The translations under genes were made by a program, and so were the position numbers. The notes under the pieces are model-generated. The model was given only the letters and a program-made list of their open reading frames with translations. It was not told the DNA's origin and ran no database searches. Shown piece by piece: positions 1,398-64,000 of a stretch of 64,000 bases of DNA; within the stretch, counting starts at the first letter, position 1; every line of letters starts with the position of its first letter. Origin of the DNA: a virus; IMG/VR virus record IMGVR_UViG_3300021093_000054, positions 1 to 64,000 of that record. One strand, given 5' to 3'.

Positions 1398-2612
1398 TTA
1401 TTTTCCATTTAAATCAAATTTGATTTCTTCAGATGGTATATTAGATTCGACCATTGTTTCTTTATCAATTTCATACCCATCATCATTTTTATAGTCATTT
1501 AACAACTCATCATTTGATAATGTTTTAAAATCATTTTTTAAATTATTAATATCAAGTTTATAGCTAATTTTGTGTTTAATATCTTCTATTTCAGTTACAT
1601 TTTTAATTGACTTATCTATTTGATATATAATTTTATATGGGTCAGCGTTTGAACCAGGTCTTCTATCTTCAACATAACCTTTCCAATTTTCTGCAGTTTG
1701 TTGTGGTACTCTGATTGATGCTCCTCTATCAGAAATACCCCAACTGAATTTATCAATCGATTGTGTTTCGTAATTTCCAGTCAACCTTAATTCATTTGAT
1801 GAACCGTATTCTTTGATGTGTTCCCAATGTCTTAAATCAAAACTTGCAAACAATGATTCAAAATATTCTTTTCCTCCTTCTTCTCTCATTTTCTGGTTTG
1901 AAAAATTTGTATGTAATCCAGACCCATTCCATTGTCCGTGTGTAAGTGGTTTTGGATGTAATTCAATGTGGTAACCAAATTTTTCAGAAATTTTATATAA
2001 AAAATATCTACTCATCCATAAATCATCCCCACCCTTTAGTTTACCTTTTGAGAATACTTGATATTCCCATTGACCTAATGCAACTTCGGCATTTGTACCA
2101 GTAATGTCAATACCATAATCCAAACACATATCAAGATGTTCTTCAACTAAGTCTCTTCCTATTACATTATGTCCAACACCACAGTAGTATTCTCCCTGTC
2201 CTTTTAAAATATTTCTTTTATGTCCAAGTATATTTCCGTTAATTTCTTCCCTAATGAAATATTCTTGTTCAAAACCTAACCATAAATCTTCCTGTTCTTT
2301 ACCAATTTTTGATCTCATATTGGATTCGTGTGAAGTGCCGTCAGGGTTCATTACTTCACACAAAACATATATTGTTTTGTTTTCAGAAGGAAAATTACAA
2401 TGTTTGTACAAAGCAACCGGTTTTAATATTCTGTCAGAATTTCGAGTTTCAGCCTGATTTGTTGATGAACCATCGAAATTCCAAGTTGGTAGATTGATAC
2501 CATCGTCCATATTTCTGACAATTTTTTCGTAGTCAATAATTTTTACTTTACTTCTTAAATTGGCTTCTGGTTTATAACCATCCAACCATACGTACTCTAA
2601 TTTAACTTTCAT
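1398..2612 (-). CDS. glnII: Glutamine synthetase, type II (GSII)
   Basis: Motifs LEYVWLDG, NFDGSST, GFEQEY, GQWEYQ, WNGSGLHTNFS, RGASIRVP, EDRRPGSNADPY. Confidence 0.93.
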   Translation of the reverse strand: MKVKLEYVWLDGYKPEANLRSKVKIIDYEKIVRNMDDGINLPTWNFDGSSTNQAETRNSDRILKPVALYKHCNFPSENKTIYVLCEVMNPDGTSHESNMRSKIGKEQEDLWLGFEQEYFIREEINGNILGHKRNILKGQGEYYCGVGHNVIGRDLVEEHLDMCLDYGIDITGTNAEVALGQWEYQVFSKGKLKGGDDLWMSRYFLYKISEKFGYHIELHPKPLTHGQWNGSGLHTNFSNQKMREEGGKEYFESLFASFDLRHWEHIKEYGSSNELRLTGNYETQSIDKFSWGISDRGASIRVPQQTAENWKGYVEDRRPGSNADPYKIIYQIDKSIKNVTEIEDIKHKISYKLDINNLKNDFKTLSNDELLNDYKNDDGYEIDKETMVESNIPSEEIKFDLNGK

Positions 2613-2888
2613 TTTTTTATTTTATTTATTTATATTTATTTTTTAAGTATTTATTCCACTGTTCTTGTTTTCTTCCGTTGATGAAGAACCAAACCCAATT
2701 TAGTTCAAACCATCTGTTTAATTTCTTTAACATACTATTTCTTATTTAACTTAAATGTGTCTGGATCCAAATAATCACATATTACCATCGTAATAAGTCC
2801 TGGTAATCCAACAATAAGTGCTGGAATTGCTAGAATCACTGAAATGACTCTAAGGGTGTAATAAAGTATTTTTTTCATATTAATAATA

Positions 2889-4106
2889 TTAAACAAAAAC
2901 TTTTGGTAAGTCAGCCCAAGATGTTGTATATTTTTGGGTAATATACTCTTGTTTCATTTCCCAATCTTTAATTTCATTTACTGGTGGTTCAACATAATTT
3001 ATTTCTTCTTCAAATAAAGAACACTGTATAACATTTTCTGGTGTTAATTCATTGAATATTATACCGCACTTCTTAAACTTTTCTTTTTTATCACAAATCA
3101 TTTTAAACTGGTCATATATTTGAGACCATATTTCATCACTATCACTTGTTGGGTTCTGTAAGTTTATTGTTTTTGAATAATGGTACTTATCTCCCTTGTG
3201 GTAATTACCAGAAACAAATATTGTAGCTTTATTTGCTAGTACACTAGACTGATTTAGTTTTTTTGTACCGCTAACTATATAGTTATACATAGCTTCACCC
3301 ATTTGTTCAAAGTCAGTTACGTCTTTACCAAAAGACCTTGTAGACGCAATATTTCTTTTTAATTTAGTTTGTTTTTGAATTTGGTAACAATATAACCCTT
3401 TTAGTTCTAGTTGTGTTTTAGATCCATTTACGTTTGTTAATTTCCTAACAGTATAATCACTTGTGTTAATAAATTGTCCAACTGTTTCAACACCAATATT
3501 TTTAAATTTTTTATACCATTTCCTTCCAATCCCCCAGACTTCATCAAGTGGAATTGAGTAGCATATATTTTCAAAATTTGGTACATCCCAATAAGAACAC
3601 ACACCATTATAGTTAGGTTGTTTTTTTGCAAAATATGATGTGAGTTTTGCCAGAGTTTTATTTGGTCCAACACCTATTGATACAGGTATACCAGTTTGTC
3701 TATAGACTTCATTTTTAATTCCGCGTAAAGTATCAAGTAAATGTTCGTCTGGAATGTTTGAAAAATCAACAAATGACTCATCAATTGAATATACTTCAAT
3801 GTCATTTGCAAAACTTTTAATTAGAGTCATCACTCGGTCTGACATATCACCATAAAGATTATAATTAGACGAATAAACACAGAATTTATGTTGATCCATA
3901 AAATCTCTACTTTTAAAAAATGGTTCACCCATTTTAATTCCCAAATCTTTTGCTTCTTGTGACCGAGCAATTACACAGCCATCATTATTAGATAAAACAA
4001 CCGTTGGTCTTCCAATTGATTCTGGATTAAATAATCTTTCACAACTGACATAAAAGTTGTTACAATCAATTATACCAATCTTTTTTAAACTTTTTTTAGA
4101 ACCCAT
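2889..4106 (-). CDS. umuC: Y-family DNA polymerase V catalytic subunit UmuC
   Basis: IIDCNNFYVSCERLFNP, VVLSNNDGCVIARS, YSIDESF, VWGIG; C-terminal W.MKQE...YTT.W. Confidence 0.93.
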   Translation of the reverse strand: MGSKKSLKKIGIIDCNNFYVSCERLFNPESIGRPTVVLSNNDGCVIARSQEAKDLGIKMGEPFFKSRDFMDQHKFCVYSSNYNLYGDMSDRVMTLIKSFANDIEVYSIDESFVDFSNIPDEHLLDTLRGIKNEVYRQTGIPVSIGVGPNKTLAKLTSYFAKKQPNYNGVCSYWDVPNFENICYSIPLDEVWGIGRKWYKKFKNIGVETVGQFINTSDYTVRKLTNVNGSKTQLELKGLYCYQIQKQTKLKRNIASTRSFGKDVTDFEQMGEAMYNYIVSGTKKLNQSSVLANKATIFVSGNYHKGDKYHYSKTINLQNPTSDSDEIWSQIYDQFKMICDKKEKFKKCGIIFNELTPENVIQCSLFEEEINYVEPPVNEIKDWEMKQEYITQKYTTSWADLPKVFV

Positions 4107-4411
4107 GTTATTTTACCCCATAAATTTTTTTGACCATTATATTCTCTAATTTTGAAAAATGATTTATCTATTAAAACAACCAAATCATTTTCTTTTGGTT
4201 CTTCTGACCTATCAATAACCAATGTGTCTCCATCTTTAACGCCAAATACATTAGGACCGGAATATCTGAAATAAAATGTTGTATAAATGTTTTTAACAAT
4301 TAAATCATTTAAGTCTAATCTCTTATCAACATAAGTTTCAGCTGGAGATGGAAAACCAGTTGTTTTAGCTTTAATATGTAAATTATTTTTTTTTATTTTT
4401 GTATTCATCAT
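4085..4411 (-). CDS. umuD: UmuD-like S24 family protein (catalytic Ser apparently absent)
   Basis: GFPSPA..Y...LDLN.L, DGDTLVIDRS; directly upstream of and overlapping umuC. Confidence 0.8.
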   Translation of the reverse strand: MMNTKIKKNNLHIKAKTTGFPSPAETYVDKRLDLNDLIVKNIYTTFYFRYSGPNVFGVKDGDTLVIDRSEEPKENDLVVLIDKSFFKIREYNGQKNLWGKITWVLKKV

Positions 4412-44121: not shown

Positions 44122-44710
44122 TGTCTAATTTTTTTATAAAATATTCAAAATCAAAAGCAGGACTCAAGTCTGTGGATTCTTCATCAATATTTGATCTTGT
44201 GATAATCCCACTAAATGTTTCCAGTCTATTTGTTTTTGTATTATGTCCAATACAAATTGGTTCTATATTAAACTTTTTAGATAACTTAATACAAAGTTCA
44301 GCTGTTTTATCCAACTGTATTTGTGTATAAGGTTCCCAAAAAAAATAGTCTCTCCATTTCTTACTGAACACTTTCTCTTTATAAATACTCCCCAACCAGT
44401 TAATGTGATGATTTTTTAGTGGTTGTTTTTCTAACCAACCAAGATTTTCCAAAGAAATGATAATAGACTGTTTATCATACACAGTATTGTTTAACATTTT
44501 ACCATAATGTTCATCATCCATTGTTTGTAAAACAATACCTTCTTTTGTTACAATGTAATGTGGTAATTTATCATATTTCTTGTTGTGTCTATTTCTCAAT
44601 GCTGTTAAATATTCATCAGCATTTCTTGATGTGTGGGTTAAAACTATCTGAATTTTATTTTTTTCTACACCGAAATTATTGTTAATTTTTTTATCTAAAA
44701 TTTCAAACAT
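44114..44710 (-). CDS. N-acetylmuramoyl-L-alanine amidase (Amidase_2)-like protein
   Basis: IVLTHT, PHYIV..EG, SLEN.G, YT..Q, D..PAFDF; second His ligand is ambiguous. Confidence 0.7.
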   Translation of the reverse strand: MFEILDKKINNNFGVEKNKIQIVLTHTSRNADEYLTALRNRHNKKYDKLPHYIVTKEGIVLQTMDDEHYGKMLNNTVYDKQSIIISLENLGWLEKQPLKNHHINWLGSIYKEKVFSKKWRDYFFWEPYTQIQLDKTAELCIKLSKKFNIEPICIGHNTKTNRLETFSGIITRSNIDEESTDLSPAFDFEYFIKKLDNE

Positions 44711-45752
44711 TCTTTTTATATGTAAGTCTTTTTATACCACCAATATCATTTGTTGTTGTAGTTGTTTCCATAGGAACGTCTATCCAATAATCAACATTAT
44801 CAAATAAATCTTCATCATCTACTTGGTCGGTACTTGGTCGGTACTTGGTCGGTACTTGGTCGGTTTCTTCTTCAACTTGGGGGGTACTTGTGGGTTGGTT
44901 GTGGATTGGTTGTGGGGTTGGTAGATTGGTTGATTGAAAATTTTCATCTTCTTTTCTACTGGACTTGAATGCTTGATTTGTTGCAATAACCAAAGTAATT
45001 GCCAATGGATCAAAAACAAAAATCAGAATTAAAATAAAAAGATTTGCAGTTCTTTTTATTTCCCAATCTAAAAGTTCACTTACGTATTTGATTGCACCAA
45101 GTTCACTATTCCCAATGTCTTGTGATTCCATATCTAAAATCTGAACATCAAGTTTTGTTATACTATCGTTATAACCATCGATTCTTTTTGAAATTGTATC
45201 TCTTCTTGATTGTGCTTCTTTTAATTGTCCTTCAAATGATTTTCTATTTGCATTATTTGCTCTTGTAATTAATTGCCCAGTTCTTTGGTCTACAGTTTGT
45301 GTTGTTGTATTTGTAGATAGTCCATCCCTTAATTTTGTAATATCACCATCGAGGGTTATTTTTTCTTTTGTTAATTCGGTTTTTATTTCTTCAAATCTTT
45401 TCTTTTTAACTTCAACATTCTTTACTTGTTTTTCACTTATTTCAAGTTTTGCAATATTTCCTTGGAATCCGGTACTAAGTAATCCATAGATACCCAAAGA
45501 AGTAATAATTGATAATATTATAAGTGCAATTGTCATATAAATTTTTAAGACACCATATGTTTGTTTCCATTTATCGTGAAGATATGTAGCTATTGCTATT
45601 TTAGAAATTTCAAGGAAGGATCCCATTATTATTACCGGAATTGCAACACCGACAAACACAATGGACAAACCAACAACACTATAATATGCTGCGGTTGCTG
45701 ATAAACCAAGAGCACAAAATAACATAAACCAGGGTAAAAATTTTTCTTTCAT
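44703..45752 (-). CDS. Multi-TM coiled-coil membrane protein
   Basis: SATAAYYSVVGL, LEISK, TSLGIYGLLS, FVFDPLA. Confidence 0.75.
   Translation of the reverse strand: MKEKFLPWFMLFCALGLSATAAYYSVVGLSIVFVGVAIPVIIMGSFLEISKIAIATYLHDKWKQTYGVLKIYMTIALIILSIITSLGIYGLLSTGFQGNIAKLEISEKQVKNVEVKKKRFEEIKTELTKEKITLDGDITKLRDGLSTNTTTQTVDQRTGQLITRANNANRKSFEGQLKEAQSRRDTISKRIDGYNDSITKLDVQILDMESQDIGNSELGAIKYVSELLDWEIKRTANLFILILIFVFDPLAITLVIATNQAFKSSRKEDENFQSTNLPTPQPIHNQPTSTPQVEEETDQVPTKYRPSTDQVDDEDLFDNVDYWIDVPMETTTTTNDIGGIKRLTYKKNV
44820..44864. repeat. 11-bp tandem repeat (TACTTGGTCGG)x4 in the coding region
   Basis: Four exact copies. Confidence 0.95.
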
Positions 45753-46328: not shown

Positions 46329-47231
46329 CTAATTTACCAAACTTTTTTGATAAATATTTTGGAATATGTAAGAAATTACATCAACGGTCCATCCATTACC
46401 AATCATTTTTTTTCTTTGGTTTAAAGTTGCAATTGATGTGTAGTTATCTGGTAGTGTTTGTAATCTTTCGTATTCCAGAATATTAAGTTCCCTTAAATTT
46501 CCATCAACAACAACACCATAGTTACAGGCCGTGTTTAGTGTATTTGTTTTACCGTGACTTACTCTACCTCTTCTTGTTTTACTCTTCGGAACTTCAAGGT
46601 TTACACAATCACCATTATTAGCATACAAATATCCTTGTTTTGTTCCATTCCTTATTTTAAAACCTTCGTCGTTTATATCTAACACAACAAGGTGGTCGTT
46701 TATTATTTTTTCTGAACCATCTGGTTTTAAAATATCTAAAATGTGAATGTTCTTATCTTCCATATTCTTATCAATTGGAATGTTAGTCCAATAAAGTCTT
46801 TGTCTTTTTTGAGCCGAAAAAAATTTACTGTCAATCATTATTGGTTCAACACCAATTGCGTCTGTTATAATTTTTTCCCATTCTTTTTTCATTACAACAT
46901 TTTCTAAAAGAAAATATGTTGGTTTTACTTCATTTAATATTCTAACATATTCCCAAAATAAACCACTCTTTCCGTCAAATCCTGTATTGTCACCTGACCT
47001 ACTAAATGATTGACATGGTGATCCACCTATAAGTAAATCAATTTTTGGTAATGTTGAGGTATCCAAACCTACAACACTACCTAATTGGATTGTATTTGGG
47101 AAATGGTGTTGTGTAAGGGAAATTGCGTGTTTATCAATTTCTGAAGCAAAATAATTATCAACTTCAATACCAGCTCTTTGTAGTGCTAGTTGTCCGCAGG
47201 AAATACCATCAAATAGACTCAATATATTCAT
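46329..47231 (-). CDS. DNA cytosine-5 methyltransferase (paralog 2)
   Basis: LSLFDGISCG, GGSPCQ, LLENV, Q.R.RLYW, GNGW. Confidence 0.93.
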   Translation of the reverse strand: MNILSLFDGISCGQLALQRAGIEVDNYFASEIDKHAISLTQHHFPNTIQLGSVVGLDTSTLPKIDLLIGGSPCQSFSRSGDNTGFDGKSGLFWEYVRILNEVKPTYFLLENVVMKKEWEKIITDAIGVEPIMIDSKFFSAQKRQRLYWTNIPIDKNMEDKNIHILDILKPDGSEKIINDHLVVLDINDEGFKIRNGTKQGYLYANNGDCVNLEVPKSKTRRGRVSHGKTNTLNTACNYGVVVDGNLRELNILEYERLQTLPDNYTSIATLNQRKKMIGNGWTVDVISYIFQNIYQKSLVN

Positions 47232-48027
47232 ATTTCATATTTTTGAATATATGTTCTATAATACCTACGGTCCAACCATTTCCTAACATTTTATATCTTT
47301 GAGTATTGGAAACAACTGAAGAATAATTATCTGGAACATTTTGTAATCTTTCGTATTCAACTGGTGTTAGCATTCTAATATTACCATTATCCATAACACC
47401 ACTCATTTGTTGATTACCAAATCCTTTATAATCTCTAGCAAGTAATGTTGCCGATTTATCACCACCAGGTTTATGTGTCTTTTTTTGGTTTGACACAATT
47501 ATATGTTGACCACTTAAAAGTATATCAGACATTTTTACATTTTTATCTTCTGGTTGTTTTATATTTGAAATGTTGGTCCAGTAGAGTCGTTTTCTATTTT
47601 GTGCAGAAACAAGATTACTATTTATTAAAATTGGTTCAACACCCATATGTTGTGTAATAACATCTTCATATTCTTTTTTCATCACAACATTTTCAAGTAA
47701 AAAGTATTTTGGTTTACATTCTTCCATTAACCTAACAAATTCAAAGAACAATTTACTTCGTTCGTCTTCGAAATTTAATTGTTTACCAGCAAATGAAAAT
47801 CCCTGACACGGACTACCACCAATAAGTAAATCAATTGGTGGTAGGTCAGTTCCTTTAACTTGTGTAACATCACCAATTTGTATTGTTTCTGGATAGTTAT
47901 GTTGTGTTACTTGTATTGCAAACTTATCTATTTCTGATGCAAAGTACTTATCATATTTAATACCAGCTTTGTTTAGTGCAATTTGTCCACAGGACATTCC
48001 ATCAAATGAAGAAAGTACATTCATCAT
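47209..48027 (-). CDS. DNA cytosine-5 methyltransferase (paralog 1)
   Basis: FDGMSCG, GGSPCQ, LLENV, QNRKRLYW, GNGW. Confidence 0.93.
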   Translation of the reverse strand: MMNVLSSFDGMSCGQIALNKAGIKYDKYFASEIDKFAIQVTQHNYPETIQIGDVTQVKGTDLPPIDLLIGGSPCQGFSFAGKQLNFEDERSKLFFEFVRLMEECKPKYFLLENVVMKKEYEDVITQHMGVEPILINSNLVSAQNRKRLYWTNISNIKQPEDKNVKMSDILLSGQHIIVSNQKKTHKPGGDKSATLLARDYKGFGNQQMSGVMDNGNIRMLTPVEYERLQNVPDNYSSVVSNTQRYKMLGNGWTVGIIEHIFKNMKYEYIESI

Positions 48028-48824
48028 AGATAGTCAAATAGTTCAGATGATTCATTACGAAGTCTACGAAGAGCTTTTTCTTTGATTTGTCTAACTCTTT
48101 CTTTTGTTAAGTTAAAATCTGACCCAATGTCTTCCAAAGTTCTTGGTGTACCAGTAAGGCCAAAATAGTCACCGATGATTGATTTTTCACGGTCGTCCAA
48201 AACATTAAGTAATGACAACAACTTGTCTTTAAGAATGTCTTTTGTATTAAACCCAGCGTCTGGAGCTACAGCATCTGGATTTTCAATAAGATCAATAAGT
48301 GTATCACCTTCTTCGTTGATATTCATATCAAGATTAATTATTGAAGGAAGTCGGGCAAACTTATCATCCAGTTTTTTACCGGATTGTTCAACTTCTTTTT
48401 TTGCTTTTTGTAAATCCTGGACAACATTAACTGGGAGTCTGATTGTTCTTGCATTGTCATTTAGGGATTGAATAATTGATTGTTTAACCCACCACACAGC
48501 ATATGAAATAAATCTTAAGTCTTTATTCCAATCAAAATTTTTAATTGCTTTCATAAGACCAAGGTTTCCTTCGGCAATAAGATCCGATAAATCAAGACCT
48601 TGATTCTGATACTGTTTTGCAACAGTGATAACAAAACGAAGATTTCCTTCCAATAGTTCGTCTTCTATTTTTTTTCTTTCTCTTTCCGAAATCTCTTCAG
48701 ATTTCATTTTCAAAGCAAGCTCCTTCTCACGATCTGGAGTCATAACTTTAATCTTTCTAATGTCTTTTAGGTAGTGATAAATTTCGTCCTGATTAATTGG
48801 GGCACCGATGTTCTTTTCCTTCAT
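48024..48824 (-). CDS. RpoD-family sigma-70 factor
   Basis: YLKDI, NLRFVITVAKQY, DLIAEGNLGL, RFISYAVWW, ARTIRLP, LTKERVRQIKEKALRRLR. Confidence 0.93.
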   Translation of the reverse strand: MKEKNIGAPINQDEIYHYLKDIRKIKVMTPDREKELALKMKSEEISERERKKIEDELLEGNLRFVITVAKQYQNQGLDLSDLIAEGNLGLMKAIKNFDWNKDLRFISYAVWWVKQSIIQSLNDNARTIRLPVNVVQDLQKAKKEVEQSGKKLDDKFARLPSIINLDMNINEEGDTLIDLIENPDAVAPDAGFNTKDILKDKLLSLLNVLDDREKSIIGDYFGLTGTPRTLEDIGSDFNLTKERVRQIKEKALRRLRNESSELFDYL

Positions 48825-49363: not shown

Positions 49364-49445
49364 AGATTTTTATTTTGGTTCAACAAAGATAGTGAAAATA
49401 TTGGTTTCTAAACTAACTTTTTTTAAAAAATATTTTCAGACTATA

Positions 49446-49744
49446 ATTGTGATTACATTTTATTTGTTGATGGTTCACAATAAACAACCTCTAAACCGAA
49501 CTAACTAAATAGTTGTGATTACCTTCCATTTAAGTATGATTCACAATTTTATTAAATATGGATAGTATATTGTCCGAGTTGTGATTACCTTTCATTTAAG
49601 GATGATTCACAATGCGCACTGCCGGTTTGTCCGAACGATTTTTGTTGTGATTACCTTTCATTTAAGGATGATTCACAATTTCAATCGTTGGGGATGAATT
49701 ATACGGCAGTTGTGATTACCTTTCATTTAAGGATGATTCACAAT
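49446..49744 (-). CRISPR. CRISPR array: 5 repeats (36 bp), 4 spacers (29, 30, 30, 30 bp)
   Basis: Minus-strand repeat ATTGTGAATCATCCTTAAATGAAAGGTAATCACAAC, identical at 49709-49744, 49644-49679 and 49578-49613, 2 mismatches at 49512-49547, degenerate at 49446-49481; the degeneracy gradient points away from tnpB. Confidence 0.97.
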
Positions 49745-49851
49745 GTGAATTAGGAAACTTTACTATTGAAAGGTTCTTATCATCAACAGAAGTTGTAACC
49801 AACTTCCTCCGAATAATTAAATTGGATGTCACACCACCCAGTTTTTGTTTC
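49745..49851 (-). ncRNA. Putative tracrRNA/omega-RNA-like scaffold and leader between tnpB and the array
   Basis: Hairpin GAAGUUG-GUUA-CAACUUC (49789-49806) and anti-repeat GUUGAUGAUAAGAACCUUUCA (49787-49767), complementary to the repeat 3' part UGAAAGGUAAUCACAAC. Confidence 0.65.
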
Positions 49852-51030
49852 CTATTTTTTTAAACTGTCAAAGAACTTTTTTGTCCCTAAATCTCTAATG
49901 TTTAAGGCAGCATTTAAATCTCTATTCAAAATTTCACCACAATTTTCACATTTCCAGATTCTATCTTTTAATTCTAAATTTTTATTAATTGTCCCACAAC
50001 AATTACATTTTTTACTTGTTGGTTCAAATCTACCAATTTCAACTAAATATTTTCCACTATTTTTTGTTTTATAACCAATCATAGTTTTAAATTTACCAAA
50101 ACCAACATCAATTATACTTCTATTCAATCCAGATTTTTGTTTTACATTTTTACCAGGATTTTCTTTTGTACCTTTACTTGATTTTGTCATCCCTTTAACA
50201 TTTAAATCTTCCATACAAATCAAATCATAATTATCTACTAATTTTTTTGATTCGTTATGTAAAAAATTTTCTCTTGTATTAGCTACATTTTCATGTATTT
50301 TTGAAATGTTTTTTTTTATTTTTTTATAGTTGTTTGACCCTTTTTTTGCTCTTGCTAATTTTCTTTGTAAGACAGTTAGGTGTTCTTGATTTTTAGTTAA
50401 ATGTTTTGGATTTTCTATTACTTCGTTATCTGATGTGACAACAAATGCTTTTACCCCCAAATCTATACCAACACTTTTTTTAACTTCAACTTTTTTAAAA
50501 TTATTTGTGTACTCAACCATAATTGAGACATAATATTTATTGTGTTTTTTTGAAATTGTTACGGTTTTGATTTTACCTTCAATAGGTCTATGATATTTAA
50601 TTTTAATTAATTTTTCAACCTTTGGTATTTTCAAATAGCCGTCATATGTAATATATAAATTTTTAGAATTTTGCTTTGTACTTGGTCTTGTTGTAAAACT
50701 TTGAGTGGTGTCGGATTCTTTTTTGAATTTTGGGTAACCCCCTTTATTTTTAAAAAAATTTTTATATGCCTTTGATAAGGCCTTCATTTCATTACAATAT
50801 ATGTTTACATCATATTCGTTTAGAAATGGTGCTTTTACTCTATAATTTTTTATATGATAATTTAATCCAAAATGTGATAAATTTGATTTACCACCCAACT
50901 GATAAATTTGTTTTTCACAATCTAAAGAAACATTATAAACATATCTTCCGGCTTTGAAAGCCCCTTCAAAATATTCTATTTGTTTCTCTGTTGGGTAAAT
51001 CCTATATTTATATGCTTTATTTTGTTTCAC
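49852..51030 (-). CDS. tnpB: TnpB-family RNA-guided nuclease, CRISPR-associated, RuvC intact
   Basis: AYKYRIYPT HTH; RuvC-I GIDLG, RuvC-II MEDL, Zn finger CNCCG..CENCG, RuvC-III RDLNAALNI; GTG start. Confidence 0.93.
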   Translation of the reverse strand: MKQNKAYKYRIYPTEKQIEYFEGAFKAGRYVYNVSLDCEKQIYQLGGKSNLSHFGLNYHIKNYRVKAPFLNEYDVNIYCNEMKALSKAYKNFFKNKGGYPKFKKESDTTQSFTTRPSTKQNSKNLYITYDGYLKIPKVEKLIKIKYHRPIEGKIKTVTISKKHNKYYVSIMVEYTNNFKKVEVKKSVGIDLGVKAFVVTSDNEVIENPKHLTKNQEHLTVLQRKLARAKKGSNNYKKIKKNISKIHENVANTRENFLHNESKKLVDNYDLICMEDLNVKGMTKSSKGTKENPGKNVKQKSGLNRSIIDVGFGKFKTMIGYKTKNSGKYLVEIGRFEPTSKKCNCCGTINKNLELKDRIWKCENCGEILNRDLNAALNIRDLGTKKFFDSLKK

Positions 51031-51049
51031 AATACAAATATAGGATTTA
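50996..51049. repeat. 14-bp perfect inverted repeat around the tnpB start codon
   Basis: taaatcctatattt (50996-51009) / aaatataggattta (51036-51049). Confidence 0.8.
51035..51042 (-). promoter_or_regulatory. TAnnTTTG promoter for tnpB (leaderless)
   Basis: TATATTTG-TATT-GTG, same 4-nt spacing as five other genes. Confidence 0.7.
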
Positions 51050-51053
51050 TTTT

Positions 51054-53432
51054 TTAATTGGTCAAAAGTTTTGAGATATTATTTTGTTTTGTAATTTTTA
51101 TCACACAATCTGCCCATTGTGAGACCATAGGATTGTGAGTTATTACAAACACTTTATCAAAGTATTCCTTAATCTTTACAAAAAATTCAGACACCATCTC
51201 CAAGTTGTCATTACTTATTTTACCAAATACTTCGTCGAATACAATCAGATTGGGTTTTGGTAGAGAACATACTTTACTCAAAACTGATCTTAAGGCGAGT
51301 GATGCAATTGTTTTTTCATATCCGGACCCACTAACCATTAACTTTTCAACACCAGTATTATTATCTACCTGGATAAACTCAACCTCGGATTTATCATTAA
51401 TTCTGATTTCTAATTTGAAGTAACAAGAATCTTCCATCAACCTTTGTAATTCAGAGTTAATAAGTGGCATCATAGTTTTCATAATAATTTTACTAACACC
51501 ATTCTTACCATAACTTTCAAGATACATTTTATAAATCTTATCCTTACTTTCTTCTTCTTTAATTTTTACAATTAAATTTTTGTTATTGGTAATCTTTTCC
51601 TTATTTGATTTAATTGTATATTCATTTGTGTTAATCTGGTTATTCTTTTCTTTTAAAAGTTTATCATAACTTTCAAGTTTCAAGTCAGCTTTAATTAACA
51701 TAGAATCAATCTGGTCGTTTGTTTTAATCTTGTCCTGGACCTCACCCCACCTTTTTAATTTATCTTCAAACCCAGAAATTTTCAAGTCACAACTTTCAAC
51801 ACTCAAATCATATTTTTCTTTGATAAGTTTGTTTTTCTCATACTCATCAAATTGTCTTTTTGTCTCAACAAATTCTTTTTCTTTGTTGGTTAAATCCGTC
51901 ATTAACTTCTCAATAACCTTTTTTTGTTGTGTAAATCCATCAAGTTCAGATATTTTTTGTTGTGTAATTGCTGCGTTCATAAGTTCAATTCCACAGTGTT
52001 CACATTTAATACCACCCTTTACTTCTGACTTTAATTTTTCAATACCAGAAATCTTTGTTTCAAGTTCTATTTTTGAATGGAACTTAGTTTTATACTCATC
52101 TTTTACTTTGTCGTGTTTATCTTCTTCATAAAATTGTTCTGGTTCAACAACCTTTAGTGTTGAAAGTAGGTCAACATAAGATTGTCTTTCTTTTTTCAAA
52201 GTTTCTATTTGTGATTTTGTTGTTTCTGGATTAAGTAAGGCAATTTCTTTATCGATGTCTGAATGTTTCTTTTTTAACATCGAATCTCTATAATCTTTTC
52301 CTTTTGCTATACCATCCTCAATTTCTTTTACTTCACTTTTAAGAATTTCAATTTGTCCTTCAAGTTCTGTGATTTTACTTTCAAAAGATTCAATATCTTG
52401 TTTTAATTCTTCTGAATTATAGATATTTGATAATTTTGACTTACTAAATGATGAATAAATTTCTTTTGCAACTTCTTCCTTTTTCTTTAAAAATTCAAGA
52501 CCCATAAATCTTGAAAGAACTTGTCCTCTGGCTGTTGGTTTTGCTTCTAATAATTCTTCTAGGTTTGTTGCCGTTGTAAGAATTGTCATTAAGAAATCTT
52601 CCTTGGTCCCAATTGAACTTTTAATGAAGGCTTCAGTTTCTCTTCTTTGTTCTCCGGTAAAGTTCTGTAAAGAACCATCGTGTAGTTTTTTAAAGAAATC
52701 AAGTTCTGTTTTAACATTCCATTCACCTTTCTTTGATTTTTTTCTTTCAATTTTTCTTAAAATTATATAATCTTCACCATCAATTGTGATTTCACCTTTA
52801 ACAACAACCTCATCTTTATCAGAAAATCTATTAAAAACTTCTTCAGCTTTTGATGTCTTTGTTGTTTCATTGAAGAACAAGAACATTAGTAAATCCACCG
52901 TAAGAACCGTCTTGCCACCAAAGTTTGGTGGGTCCGATTCAACAACAACAATTCCATTCAACTTGTCAAAATCAAGTCGTTGGTTTTCGCCATATGATAA
53001 GAAGTTGGAGAACTCAATGTTTCTTATGTACCACTTTTTAAACTGTGTTGTTTCAGAATCATCTTCTTTCATTTTATTCTCAACCATTTTATTCAAATCA
53101 AGAATTTCTGTAAGATGTTCTCCATACCCTTTGGATTCCAAAAATTTCTTTAACAAATCAAGTTGATAGTTAACGTCAGTTATGTTCATTGATACATCAA
53201 CTGTTTGCATAGTTTCTGTGTCAACATTTTTTACTTTTGTAACAACATTAACATTTGTAGTGTTATACTTTTTTTGAAAGTAGTGTTTAACACTCTTCAT
53301 TTTGTCTTGTGTGAAATTTTCTTGTAGGTCTTCCCACACCACCTGGATAGATGGGTTTTCAAACTTTGAAAAATCCAAATCTTTTATCATAATATTGTAA
53401 TTGTATAATTTTGGTGGATTAAATAAATCCAT
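51054..53432 (-). CDS. sbcC: SbcC/Rad50 (T4 gp46-like) ATPase with N-terminal extension
   Basis: FSNFLSYG, NFGGKT Walker A, long coiled coil with CEHC hook, SGYEK signature, VFDEVFG, ITH. Confidence 0.88.
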   Translation of the reverse strand: MDLFNPPKLYNYNIMIKDLDFSKFENPSIQVVWEDLQENFTQDKMKSVKHYFQKKYNTTNVNVVTKVKNVDTETMQTVDVSMNITDVNYQLDLLKKFLESKGYGEHLTEILDLNKMVENKMKEDDSETTQFKKWYIRNIEFSNFLSYGENQRLDFDKLNGIVVVESDPPNFGGKTVLTVDLLMFLFFNETTKTSKAEEVFNRFSDKDEVVVKGEITIDGEDYIILRKIERKKSKKGEWNVKTELDFFKKLHDGSLQNFTGEQRRETEAFIKSSIGTKEDFLMTILTTATNLEELLEAKPTARGQVLSRFMGLEFLKKKEEVAKEIYSSFSKSKLSNIYNSEELKQDIESFESKITELEGQIEILKSEVKEIEDGIAKGKDYRDSMLKKKHSDIDKEIALLNPETTKSQIETLKKERQSYVDLLSTLKVVEPEQFYEEDKHDKVKDEYKTKFHSKIELETKISGIEKLKSEVKGGIKCEHCGIELMNAAITQQKISELDGFTQQKKVIEKLMTDLTNKEKEFVETKRQFDEYEKNKLIKEKYDLSVESCDLKISGFEDKLKRWGEVQDKIKTNDQIDSMLIKADLKLESYDKLLKEKNNQINTNEYTIKSNKEKITNNKNLIVKIKEEESKDKIYKMYLESYGKNGVSKIIMKTMMPLINSELQRLMEDSCYFKLEIRINDKSEVEFIQVDNNTGVEKLMVSGSGYEKTIASLALRSVLSKVCSLPKPNLIVFDEVFGKISNDNLEMVSEFFVKIKEYFDKVFVITHNPMVSQWADCVIKITKQNNISKLLTN

Positions 53433-54805: not shown

Positions 54806-55541
54806 ATGAATTTATTGAGAATTTTAGAAATGGTCTTGGGTTTTCAAGATCGGTATATGTATATTCCTTGGTTTCGAAATCATAAATTCCGAACCCGTGG
54901 TTTCTAATACTTTCACCTATGTTCTGTTGAATTGGTGATCCAATCATATATCCTTTACCTGTTTTGAATTTAAATTCCTGTCTTTTATGAATATCACCAC
55001 ATAATACAATATCAAGTCCGTTGAACTTTTCAACATCATATGCTTCTTCACCAAAGTCAAACCCTAAATCCGTTTTCATGCCTTGGATTGGTCCGTGAAA
55101 TAAACCAACTTTAATACCTGTTGCAACATTCAAATCTGGTGGAATATTACCCTGGTATTGTGAATAAACACACCAACTAACATTTTCATCTTCATAAACA
55201 CCTCTATCTCTATAATAGACAATATTTTTGTTATTTAATGAATTAATTATTGGTGTTAAGGTATCCAGCCTATCTAAATTATTTATGAGTGCGTCGTGGT
55301 TCCCTGGGATGATAATTGTTTTTGTGATTTTGGAACATTCGGTCAATACCCAACTTACAATTTCTATTAATTCAGGACTAACAGTGTTTTTTGAATGAAC
55401 GAGGTCTCCAGTAAATACAATTCTATCTGGTTCAATCTCTCTCCATTGATTGAGTGCATCTTCCATAATTGACCTATAAAGGTCGTGGTCTTTAAATAAT
55501 CTGATATGAAGATCAGAGAAATGACAAATGGTTTTGATCAT
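54762..55541 (-). CDS. sbcD: SbcD/Mre11 (T4 gp47-like) nuclease
   Basis: SDLH, GDL, PGNHD, FHG, GDIHK, YMIGS..QQN.GE. Confidence 0.88.
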   Translation of the reverse strand: MIKTICHFSDLHIRLFKDHDLYRSIMEDALNQWREIEPDRIVFTGDLVHSKNTVSPELIEIVSWVLTECSKITKTIIIPGNHDALINNLDRLDTLTPIINSLNNKNIVYYRDRGVYEDENVSWCVYSQYQGNIPPDLNVATGIKVGLFHGPIQGMKTDLGFDFGEEAYDVEKFNGLDIVLCGDIHKRQEFKFKTGKGYMIGSPIQQNIGESIRNHGFGIYDFETKEYTYTDLENPRPFLKFSINSFDDIENGTELLKNL

Positions 55542-55632
55542 ATTGTTTGTTTTTTTAAAAAATATACAAAATATTTTAATTTTTCAATACTTAAAAGATA
55601 TGTATATATATAAATGTATTAATATTTTTATT

Positions 55633-56475
55633 ATGAAAAAAAATACTTGGACTAATGAAGAAATTGAATTTTTAAAGGTAAATTACCCAATAAAAGGTGT
55701 TGATTTTTGTGTTGATAATTTAAATTACACAAAATCTAAAATATTTGCAATGACTCACAAACTAAAACTTAAAATGTTACCTAACATTAAGAAAAAATAT
55801 ACGGGTAAACCAAACAATCTATGCAATGTAAATCCTTCAAAATTTGAAAATATTGTTGATAAAGATGTTTCTTATTTCCTTGGTTTGTTATGGGCTGATG
55901 GTCATATAATACATTACAAAAGAAATTACCATATTGTTTTAACTATGTTAGAAGATGATATTATGAATATTAAATGGATTTTAGATAAAGTTGGTAAATG
56001 GAACTATAATAAAATTAAAAAAGGGTCAGAAAACTGGAAAAATCAGATTCGGATTACAACAAACAATAAGAGAATATACGATATATTATATAAATATGAT
56101 TTTACTAAAAAATCAAAGTTTTCACCAGAAAAGTTGTTAAATTCTATACCTAATGAACTACATAGTTACTTTTATTTGGGACTCATAGATGGTGATGGTT
56201 GTTTTTACATCGGTAGAACAAAAAAATCAACAGTAAGACAATTTTCAATTTCATCAACCTACGAACAAGATTGGTCTTATCTTGAAAAATTGTTTAATTC
56301 AATGGATATCAAATTTTCTATTAATAGGTATAATAGGAAATCTGGTAGTTCTTATTCTTTTATTAGAGTTTCAAATAAAAAAGACATTACAAAAATTGGT
56401 GAATATATCTATAAAGATATTGATAGATTTGGTTTAGATAGAAAGTTTTTTAAGTACAACCAAATAATTTCATAA
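55633..56475 (+). CDS. Free-standing double-motif LAGLIDADG homing endonuclease
   Basis: YFLGLLWADG and FYLGLIDGDG; N-terminal WTNEEIEFLK; opposite strand to neighbours; start moved to 55633. Confidence 0.85.
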   Translation: MKKNTWTNEEIEFLKVNYPIKGVDFCVDNLNYTKSKIFAMTHKLKLKMLPNIKKKYTGKPNNLCNVNPSKFENIVDKDVSYFLGLLWADGHIIHYKRNYHIVLTMLEDDIMNIKWILDKVGKWNYNKIKKGSENWKNQIRITTNNKRIYDILYKYDFTKKSKFSPEKLLNSIPNELHSYFYLGLIDGDGCFYIGRTKKSTVRQFSISSTYEQDWSYLEKLFNSMDIKFSINRYNRKSGSSYSFIRVSNKKDITKIGEYIYKDIDRFGLDRKFFKYNQIIS

Positions 56476-62958: not shown

Positions 62959-64000
62959 TTAGATGTCTATCTTAACTACGTATTGTTGGATACCTTGTCT
63001 TAAAGTCGGTGATTGTAATTTAGACATAACAAGAATATCTTTATTGTCATCAAGTAGCGCAATTTCAGTGACATACGATTTTGTACCTAGTGTCCAGCTT
63101 GGATTTGTTGAAACTTGGAATTCACTTGAACTTAGATTTATTTTATATTTCATTTCATAAATTGTTGCTTGAATATCTGTTTCGAAAGACCCATAAAAAT
63201 AGTATTCATCACCAAAATTTAATGATTGTCCGGTATAGCCAATCGGTGTTAAACTAATATAATCATCCAAGTTGTAATATGGTGCTGAATCATAGTTATC
63301 TGGAGAAATAATAAATGTTGTCCCAGTTAACGAACTTTGAGTTATAAAACCATCTATGAAACTATTTTGGATTTGTGTTGTAAAATCTATTTTTTTCCAC
63401 ATTGCCGGATTGGGTCTTTGGCCTGTTTGTACTTTTTGAACGAGGATTTCAAATTCATCACCAAAAAATCCATTGGGTGTAATACAGGGTTCACAATTTG
63501 GTAAATAATTTGTTGTTGTAGTTGTTGTCATTGGAAATATAGTTGTGGTTGTTGTTAAACATCCACCACATTCATCAACCAAATCAATAATCAAATCACC
63601 AGTTGATTGAATACCAGTAGTTGAACAAACTACAGTTCCAGTGTTTCCTGGTAATGTAAGTGGTGATGTTTTTGTTTCATCACAACAAGGTGTAAAAATA
63701 ATTTTTGTACTTCCAGTTAATTCTGTGTTAGTAATTTGATATCTACCACAAAATGGATTAGTTGTTGTTGTGGTTGTTGAACATCCACCACATTCATCAA
63801 CCAAATCAATAATCAAATCACCAGTTGATTGAATACCAGTAGTTGAACAAACTACAGTTCCAGTGTTTCCTGGTAATGTAAGTGGTGATGTTTTTGTTTC
63901 ATCACAACAAGGTGTAAAAATAATTTTTGTACTTCCAGTTAATTCTGTGTTAGTAATTTGATATCTACCACAAAATGGATTAGTTGTTGTTGTGGTTGTA
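62959..64000 (-). CDS. Structural (tail/baseplate-like) protein, C-terminal part; starts beyond the window
   Basis: Frame open to the window edge; C-terminal TNPSW...YVTEIALLD...MSKL..P motif; Cys/Thr repeat modules. Confidence 0.7.
   Translation of the reverse strand, partial: TTTTTTNPFCGRYQITNTELTGSTKIIFTPCCDETKTSPLTLPGNTGTVVCSTTGIQSTGDLIIDLVDECGGCSTTTTTTNPFCGRYQITNTELTGSTKIIFTPCCDETKTSPLTLPGNTGTVVCSTTGIQSTGDLIIDLVDECGGCLTTTTTIFPMTTTTTTNYLPNCEPCITPNGFFGDEFEILVQKVQTGQRPNPAMWKKIDFTTQIQNSFIDGFITQSSLTGTTFIISPDNYDSAPYYNLDDYISLTPIGYTGQSLNFGDEYYFYGSFETDIQATIYEMKYKINLSSSEFQVSTNPSWTLGTKSYVTEIALLDDNKDILVMSKLQSPTLRQGIQQYVVKIDI
63558..63999. repeat. Exact tandem duplication with 222-bp (74-codon) period
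   Basis: 63558-63777 is identical to 63780-63999. Confidence 0.95.

Follow-up and report, generated by a model that had tools for sequence, protein, structure and literature searches.

TnpB-like effectors that have a CRISPR array downstream of their gene and lack cas1 and cas2 have been described as type V-U variants, and both possible origins of such arrays have been stated (PMC10691335). V-U variants carried by phages, as well as phages with host-like repeats, have been noted (PMC7162821), and plasmid-borne type IV-A3 systems that borrow the adaptation machinery of their host have been reviewed (PMC11656645). In Flavobacterium columnare, a type VI-B array is filled in trans by the Cas1 of the type II-C system; the repeats of the two types have a common leader-distal end across species, the two kinds of array are read in opposite directions, which in the VI-B orientation puts the acquisition motif upstream (5') of the target, and transcription of the II-C array starts inside the array and proceeds toward the leader (PMC8092290). 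The subject of the present analysis is a CRISPR array on the minus strand of viral DNA at positions 49446–49744 of a 64,000-nt stretch (positions 1 to 64,000 of IMG/VR record IMGVR_UViG_3300021093_000054, referred to below as the window); the record is 73,218 bp long, with a CheckV completeness of 25% and a GC content of 29%. The array lies downstream of a gene for a TnpB-family RNA-guided nuclease, and a module composed of a promoter, the TnpB gene, a scaffold of ∼110 nt, and the array recurs in three further IMG/VR phage contigs (loci L107, L112, and L122; L and G numbers designate the loci and genomes compared here). We consider it probable that the array stores the guides of a minimal type V-like (TnpB/Cas12n-like) module that is borne by the phage and includes TnpB.

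Like V-U variants, Cas12n (type V-N), and TranC (PMC10691335; PMC12216341; bioRxiv 10.1101/2025.09.28.678669), the module has a small RuvC nuclease of TnpB ancestry, a downstream array, and a scaffold located at the 3' end of the open reading frame (ORF) or beyond it, and cas1 and cas2 were not found. Unlike these systems, its nuclease has the plain TnpB size of 392 aa and is similar to ISDra2 TnpB over its full length, and its repeats are not omega-RNA-like, belonging instead to the II-C/VI-B family of the host. With the type VI-B arrays of Bacteroidota, filled in trans in F. columnare (PMC8092290), the phage locus has in common 36-nt repeats, 30-nt spacers, the leader-distal end (...ACAAC), and the order of effector gene and array in the same orientation; type VI-B is without adaptation genes of its own, and none were found with the phage array. 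The phage locus differs from type VI-B in its effector, which is predicted to be a DNA-cutting TnpB on a phage rather than Cas13b on a chromosome, in the structured anti-repeat scaffold that occupies the leader position, and in that adaptation in trans, demonstrated for F. columnare, is suggested here by analogy. With IS200/IS605 TnpB the nuclease has in common its protein family, size, catalytic residues, a structured RNA from the 3' end of the gene, and a guide 3' of the scaffold, and the L122 scaffold, like an IS200/IS605 omega-RNA, continues directly into a single guide; unlike IS200/IS605 TnpB, it is accompanied by several exchangeable guides separated by CRISPR repeats, and neither TnpA in the four records nor recognizable transposon ends were found. 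Finally, the missing adaptation module and host-like repeats are features of plasmid type IV-A3 (with host I-E) and of phage systems lacking Cas1 and Cas2 (PMC11656645; PMC7162821), although here the borrowed repeat family is that of class 2 host systems (II-C/VI-B), its user is a nuclease of TnpB size, and the borrowed repeat end is found also on phage class 1 (Cas7fv/Cas6) arrays. A TnpB coupled to an array of the VI-B/II-C family was not found described in full-text searches of the literature, and the branch may be among those designated V-U6 to V-U45 (PMC10691335).

A four-part module recurring in unrelated phage contigs

The array in the window consists of 36-nt direct repeats with a start-to-start spacing of 65–66 nt. 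In minus-strand order, repeat R1 (49709–49744) is followed by spacer S1 (49680–49708), R2 (49644–49679), S2 (49614–49643), R3 (49578–49613), S3 (49548–49577), R4 (49512–49547), S4 (49482–49511), and a decayed terminal repeat (49446–49481), which is the copy most distant from the TnpB gene. Three of the repeats are identical, the copy at 49512–49547 has two mismatches, and the leftmost (fifth) is the decayed one; the spacers, 30, 30, 30, and 29 nt long in coordinate order, are unique. The locus thus has what is generally expected of a CRISPR array, namely at least three near-identical repeats separated by unique spacers of uniform length (29–30 nt). The repeat read on the minus strand is ATTGTGAATCATCCTTAAATGAAAGGTAATCACAAC, the ends of which, TTGTGA and TCACAA, are able to pair. 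Allowing up to three mismatches, the 36-mer occurs four times in the window and not once in any of 100 shuffles, and within the whole 73,218-bp record the repeat pattern is confined to the array. No ORF of at least 50 aa overlaps the array, and an Rfam search of the window returned zero families. As an observation the array is therefore confirmed: the 36-nt repeat, pairing ends, and ∼30-nt spacers that a first-pass annotation had read from the sequence alone were reproduced by repeat mapping with the shuffle control, and the four minus-strand spacers that it listed are identical to those computed here.

The recurrence of the array with TnpB was established by several searches. Scanning IMG/VR for the last 12 nt of the repeat in two successive repeats gave 19 stretches on 12 contigs, and the exact repeat pattern with both ends fixed gave nothing in that collection. 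When the TnpB of the window was compared by tblastn with the 32 loci that the genome and viral scans had supplied (L087–L118), three matched. In L107 and L112 the TnpB genes (55% and 54% protein identity) end 111 nt and 110 nt, respectively, before an array of the same orientation, and the repeats share 32/36 and 29/36 positions with that of the window; the gene in L117 (37% identity) is on the opposite strand and 1 kb away from the array. A pattern back-translated from the family-specific peptide PGKNVKQKSGLN identified 16 viral loci, all of them having TnpB-like genes, among which L122 encodes a TnpB of 53% identity with an array of 36-nt repeats ∼150 nt downstream on the same strand. Arrays lie beside the TnpB gene in seven of the 16 viral loci having the PGKNVKQKSGLN insertion, compared with a background of one in 82 more distant TnpB loci (L005–L086), collected in a metagenome scan with generic motifs and encoding TnpBs of at most 43% identity. 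That single background case (L026:2687–2942) is a bioreactor metagenome contig with four repeats of 38–39 nt and spacers of ∼34 nt, ending 58 nt upstream of a TnpB of 37% identity. At the viral loci L125, L126, L127, and L134, distant TnpB-like genes (29–32%) with the PGKNVKQKSGLN insertion adjoin arrays of unrelated repeats, one of which has 19 repeats.

The scaffold motif and TnpB occur together at four IMG/VR loci, and an array is present at every one of them; eight other matches of the degenerate scaffold motif are not accompanied by TnpB and were set aside as chance. The flanks of the four loci are unrelated, as indicated by a comparison of all ORFs of at least 80 aa of the 73-kb record, in which, leaving aside the TnpB gene with the ORF antisense to it, one weak ORF match to L107 (E ∼3e-6) was obtained. 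Promoter, TnpB gene, scaffold, and array thus keep together although the four phage contexts are unrelated, and all four loci that have the scaffold preserve the association of a TnpB-like effector with an array downstream. In a maximum-likelihood tree, the 28 rows of the TnpB family form a clade (100/99) apart from seven generic TnpBs, which were chosen as outgroups from the 82 background loci with the remainder left out, and the four array-linked rows are located on either side of the deepest split in the family clade. A contig of a diverged relative from a 2025 lake run (39 differences in 287 nt) joins position 49391 to position 51151; this relative therefore is without array, scaffold, TnpB, and promoter together, which hints at insertion or deletion of the module as a unit.

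Scaffold RNA and nuclease

The gap from the TnpB stop codon to R1 is filled by a putative guide-RNA scaffold (omega-RNA/tracrRNA-like) of 107 nt at 49745–49851 on the minus strand. The consensus fold places hairpin 1 at 49823–49840 and hairpin 2 at 49780–49816, and the anti-repeat ACCUUUCA at 49767–49774, on the same strand, is the complement of UGAAAGGU, which occupies repeat positions 20–27 (49718–49725 in R1). The first 37 nt past the stop codon are almost identical in the window, L107, and L112, the proteins of which are just 54–55% identical, and the scaffold core motif is present in L122 as well, with compensating changes. RNAalifold applied to the four sequences returned the two hairpins and the ACCUUUCA:UGAAAGGU helix, with 24 pairs in the consensus fold and 95.8% of cells paired, compared with at most 54% in slid controls. 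Changes on both sides were found in seven pairs, compared with 2.1 ± 1.2 in shuffles, none of 500 shuffles reaching as high a number. The helix between anti-repeat and repeat comprises eight pairs, one of them compensatory and three kept as wobble pairs, with 96.9% of cells paired over the four loci. A covariance model of the scaffold found only the four TnpB-array loci apart from a match in L049, directly 3' of the stop codon of an array-less TnpB, which at E values of 0.2 in the full search and 0.001 for the locus alone is unusably weak. In L122 the scaffold is fused to the 3' half of a repeat; a 30-nt spacer and full repeats come next, an arrangement that looks like an omega-RNA, or a natural single guide, ahead of an array. 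Judged from the alignment, the scaffold is a conserved structured RNA under strong selection, with eight nucleotides complementary to the repeat.

These features bear on the possibility that the adjacency is historical only, TnpB having landed by an array and been inherited or moved with it as a cassette, with the array now inert or decaying and TnpB using a fixed omega-RNA guide. Insertion of tnpB near an existing array has been named as one possible origin by Altae-Tran et al. (PMC10691335), and the arrays are short (four to six spacers), have decayed distal repeats, and yielded no targets. Nevertheless, the proximal repeats are mutually identical within each of the four loci, despite a TnpB identity of ∼54% and spacers that are entirely different from locus to locus; changes in the anti-repeat follow changes in the repeat in L122, and gap length and layout are conserved. 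An adjacency of this kind is accordingly regarded as unlikely, and the reading in which array and TnpB form one module is retained.

The TnpB gene (49852–51030, minus strand) has a GTG start and encodes 392 aa with matches to Pfam PF12323, PF01385, and PF07282, the three domains (HTH, OrfB, and TNB) of TnpB; its score against the NCBIfam model guided_TnpB is 295.9 bits, with a cut-off of 100. Similarity to ISDra2 TnpB (PDB 8bf8; 5.2e-47) is full-length, extending over residues 2–379. Residues D190, E274, and D371 align with D191, E278, and D361 of ISDra2 TnpB, which we take to be its catalytic residues; none of the three, and none of four zinc-finger cysteines, varies across 25 relatives, and, as far as the alignment can tell, the RuvC D-E-D triad and the zinc finger of the 392-aa protein are intact. 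Residues 151–387 align with the chain in PDB 9J09 at 1e-52, including the ENPGKNVxQKSGLNR insertion, and this chain is Cas12n of Rothia dentocariosa, type V-N (PMC12216341). The N-terminal half is barely alike, residues 5–36 yielding a 5-bit stretch, and identification of the protein as a full-length Cas12n was rejected, the REC/WED half being without a good alignment and only residues 151–387 aligning well. In the comparison with PDB entries, the match to LaTranC is limited to residues 230–381 (5e-20), and Cas12p ('hacker') and Cas12f are distant (2e-6 and 0.003, respectively).

The identity of TnpBs in GenBank phages to the nuclease is at most 39%, a TnpB search of 401 Flavobacteriales genomes gave two matches of 36–40% identity, and an initial viral scan with the TnpB protein returned only relatives of 36%, which are without arrays. 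Megablast of 6 kb against GenBank phages returned zero matches. A Y1 TnpA transposase was found in none of the four TnpB-array phage records, and no transposon ends are recognizable at the four loci, where upstream similarity begins at the promoter; by TnpA and ends, then, TnpB is not recognizable as part of a transposon, and further TnpB copies in the record were not searched for. The promoter-like element (51031–51066, minus strand) abuts the GTG start on its upstream side and consists of TTTG, 20 nt, and then TATATTTG. It is present at all four loci, the similarity starting ∼36 nt before the start codon and the sequences being unrelated beyond that point. The element fits the pattern TTTG-N18-21-TAnnTTTG, which we take to be the Bacteroidota promoter consensus; over the window as a whole this pattern shows no significant enrichment (nine sites compared with 5.2 ± 2.4 expected).

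Repeat family, host machinery, and spacers

A genome scan with the last 12 nt of the repeat gave 13 stretches, ten of which are Bacteroidota arrays with a 66-nt period ending GGTAATCACAAC, in Bergeyella, Capnocytophaga, Chryseobacterium, Sphingobacterium, and several metagenome-assembled genomes; the remaining candidates, L092, L093, and L099, were rejected as irregular coincidences. The large gene beside the array is Cas13b in all four cases tested (L087, L088, L089, and L097; E at most 1.7e-238). The last 16 nt of the phage repeat are identical to those of the repeats in L088, L089, L090, and L091, 12 of the 16 identical nucleotides having been preset by the search pattern; cas13b adjoins L088 and L089 and is also adjacent to the related repeats of L087 and L097. 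The VI-B array of L087 (Bergeyella zoohelcum, 1703–4247) alternates two repeat forms that share only the last ∼18 nt, with spacings of 118 and 236 nt as well as 66 nt.

When the whole array was used as a BLAST query, independently of the pattern, the 401 sampled Flavobacteriales genomes gave matches at the repeat ends of arrays with 46-nt repeats and 30-nt spacers, which adjoin cas9 in G065, G184, and G401 (type II-C). One such II-C array beside cas9 ends TGAAAGGAAATCACAAC and has 16/17 positions in common with the phage repeat end, and the others are similar; the phage spacers equal those of the II-C arrays in length (30 nt). The phage repeat, as classified from these comparisons, therefore belongs to the host II-C/VI-B family: with its 36 nt and ∼30-nt spacers it has the length and spacer size of type VI-B, together with the family's leader-distal end, common to arrays beside cas13b and beside cas9. 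The first-pass annotation had proposed a resemblance to Bacteroidota VI-B repeats, to be checked against public sequence, and the check bears it out, with the identical 16-nt end beside cas13b and the II-C end in addition, so that the case of no resemblance to any Bacteroidota repeat family did not arise.

The same repeat end, AAGGTAATCACAAC, is found with different 5' parts in other viral arrays (L100, L103, L108, and L113–L115; L102; L101 and L106), which adjoin Cas6b-like and Cas7fv-like genes. The presence of one repeat end on unrelated phage effectors fits better with a shared adaptation signal than with a shared effector. Some large phage contigs have two or three AAGGTAATCACAAC-ending arrays each.

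The annotation had also offered a mini-array that loads a host effector as an alternative. In the form considered here, VI-B-style CRISPR RNAs would load host Cas13b, an RNA-guided RNase, against competitors and TnpB would be a mere neighbor. The repeat length, spacer length, hairpin layout, and 3' end just described are those of type VI-B, the array has the same orientation to its upstream gene as in cas13b loci, and use of host Cas proteins has been proposed for huge phages whose repeats resemble those of the host (PMC7162821). However, viral mini-arrays using host effectors are reported to have repeats identical to those of the host (PMC11656645), whereas the 5' two thirds of the phage repeat are unlike every host repeat found, the best host repeat sharing 27/36 positions over the whole length, and the whole repeat was matched in none of the 401 sampled Flavobacteriales genomes. 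The coupling of TnpB to a scaffold with a putative anti-repeat is conserved in 4/4 loci, and the occurrence of the same repeat end next to Cas7fv and Cas6 genes in phages again suggests a shared adaptation signal rather than a shared effector. Because the array is always coupled to TnpB and a scaffold predicted to pair with the repeat, and the best host repeat found does not exceed 27/36, loading of host Cas13b was not adopted as the principal explanation and is thought improbable. The proposal that the plus-strand array feeds a host type II-C Cas9, or acts as an RNA decoy (Racr-like) soaking up host Cas9 or Cas13b, can be considered very improbable, for although the plus-strand repeat begins GTTGTGATTACCTTTCA, one position in 17 off the II-C repeats beside cas9, and II-C arrays are transcribed from within toward the leader (PMC8092290), the repeat has 36 nt rather than the 46–47 nt of these II-C arrays and is like them only in its first 17–25 nt, decoys are described as single repeat units and not as arrays with regular 30-nt spacers (PMC11656645), and the conserved coupling of TnpB and scaffold is left unexplained.

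With TnpB retained as the user of the array, the origin of its spacers can be considered. Cas1 was found in none of nine viral records having this repeat end (the four TnpB-array records and 5/5 AAGGTAATCACAAC-type records), and Cas2, Cas9, and Cas13b (NF038190) were found in none of the four TnpB-array records by searches that were positive in host genomes (in 3/3 for Cas13b); all viral records searched for cas genes are fragments, 8–77% complete. The first-pass annotation had named cas1 or cas2 elsewhere in the phage genome as the observation that would speak against borrowed adaptation, and none was found in this record or its three sister records, all of which are incomplete. Relative to the gene upstream, the phage array is oriented as in type VI-B, and the decayed repeat is at the far end. 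Since the repeat end and spacer length are shared with type II-C, cas1 and cas2 were not found in these incomplete records, and F. columnare provides a precedent, filling of the phage array in trans by host II-C Cas1-Cas2 would be a reasonable inference, to which we give slightly less than an even chance. The earlier interpretation as a whole is partly supported.

Searches with the spacers gave no targets. No match was found in the rest of the 73-kb record with up to eight substitutions on either strand, in agreement with the impression of the first-pass annotation, gained by eye, that the window holds none. The comparison with viral and Bacteroidota genomes that it recommended was carried out and provided neither a protospacer nor a flanking motif: the spacers of all four arrays had no target among GenBank phages (best E 0.09 to 4), the array of the window gave only repeat-end and AT-rich chance matches in the 401 sampled Flavobacteriales genomes (E at least 2.6e-4), and exact 22-mers of spacers 1 and 2 had no match in IMG/VR. 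With no protospacer found, adaptation, targets, and the target-adjacent motif (TAM) are therefore unproven. In the part of the array that holds spacers 2 and 3 (49548–49643), GC-containing words recur: GTTCGGACAA is present in window spacer 2 and again in spacer 3 of L107, and TCGGACAA also begins window spacer 3, the flanks differing in each case. Such words common to spacers may be a recurring motif in targets. Parts of the array are without cover in some sequencing runs, and this was not used as evidence.

Several points weigh against the reading of the array as the guide store of a TnpB module and against its filling by the host. Since no protospacer was found, neither a target nor a TAM can be named and use of the spacers is unproven, and the 24 lake-water metagenome runs that contain the stretch, of which up to 14 may be its source, are all DNA. 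The covariation is based on four sequences, the same alignment of which also yielded the structure; the anti-repeat helix has just eight base pairs, and in a duplex-energy scan of 4 kb the anti-repeat site was outside the top five. Genomic context was read for the four array-linked rows of the 28 in the tree, and the module-less joint is a single contig with a depth of 6.2, a side of 40 nt, and 86% identity. The four TnpB-array records are 8–64% complete (CheckV), and cas genes could be elsewhere in these genomes. No similarity was found between the scaffold and host VI-B leaders through which host Cas1-Cas2 might recognize it. Spacer variants were not seen in contigs from four runs, although the contigs break inside the array and this observation has little weight.

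Genomic surroundings, proposed mechanism, and meaning

The genes around the module are ordinary phage genes, encoding an SbcC-like ATPase, a DUF6576 protein, a sigma factor, and two C5 methylases. The latter are two tandem C5 cytosine DNA methylase genes at 46329–48027 that overlap by 23 nt, and they are followed by the phage sigma-70 family gene at 48024–48824. Elsewhere in the window, 11-nt tandem repeats (TACTTGGTCGG in 4.1 copies, then a related unit) are found at 44820–44922 within an ORF for a 349-aa membrane protein (44703–45752), and a 222-nt tandem repeat in 2.1 copies of 98% identity (63542–63999) extends nearly up to the window end. A 315-aa ORF at 55528–56475, on the strand opposite to its neighbors, has LAGLIDADG homing endonuclease-like motifs as judged by eye from the translation.

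In the mechanism proposed for the module, transcription would come from the tnpB side and read through the scaffold to reach the array. The omega-RNA/tracrRNA part would be provided by the scaffold, which would serve the first (newest) repeat-spacer unit in cis and, by way of ACCUUUCA:UGAAAGGU pairing, the units downstream of it in trans once these are processed. The 3' tail of the repeat (AAUCACAAC) and the spacer would then guide TnpB to cut double-stranded DNA beside a TAM, the targets most likely being competing mobile elements or the host. New spacers would probably be inserted at the scaffold-proximal repeat by host type II-C Cas1-Cas2 acting in trans, a step proposed because no adaptation genes were found and yet the 36-nt repeat, 30-nt spacers, and leader-distal end of host arrays have been kept.

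Capture from the repeat family of the host, rather than growth from an omega-RNA, is the most likely origin of the array. In a more speculative extension, which we offer tentatively, a phage TnpB lineage would have turned into a CRISPR effector by capture of an array, rather than by duplication of its omega-RNA, and would then have acquired an anti-repeat in its scaffold; the repeat end would be a common adaptor through which unrelated phage effectors, namely TnpB here and Cas7fv/Cas6 class 1 effectors in other lake phages, are reprogrammed by the Cas1-Cas2 of host Cas9 systems. Reading of the array in the VI-B direction would then place the host acquisition motif 5' of the target, where TnpB would read its TAM.

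If this is true, the locus would be a natural example, at 392 aa, of the second proposed route to the origin of type V, in which TnpB joins an existing array, and adaptation in trans would be extended from VI-B arrays of the host to phage-borne DNA-cutting nucleases. In practical terms, a very compact nuclease with a short scaffold may accept CRISPR-style guides. For the phages themselves, the findings suggest that a single repeat end serves several unrelated modules of freshwater Bacteroidota phages as a shared entry ticket to the Cas1-Cas2 of their hosts.

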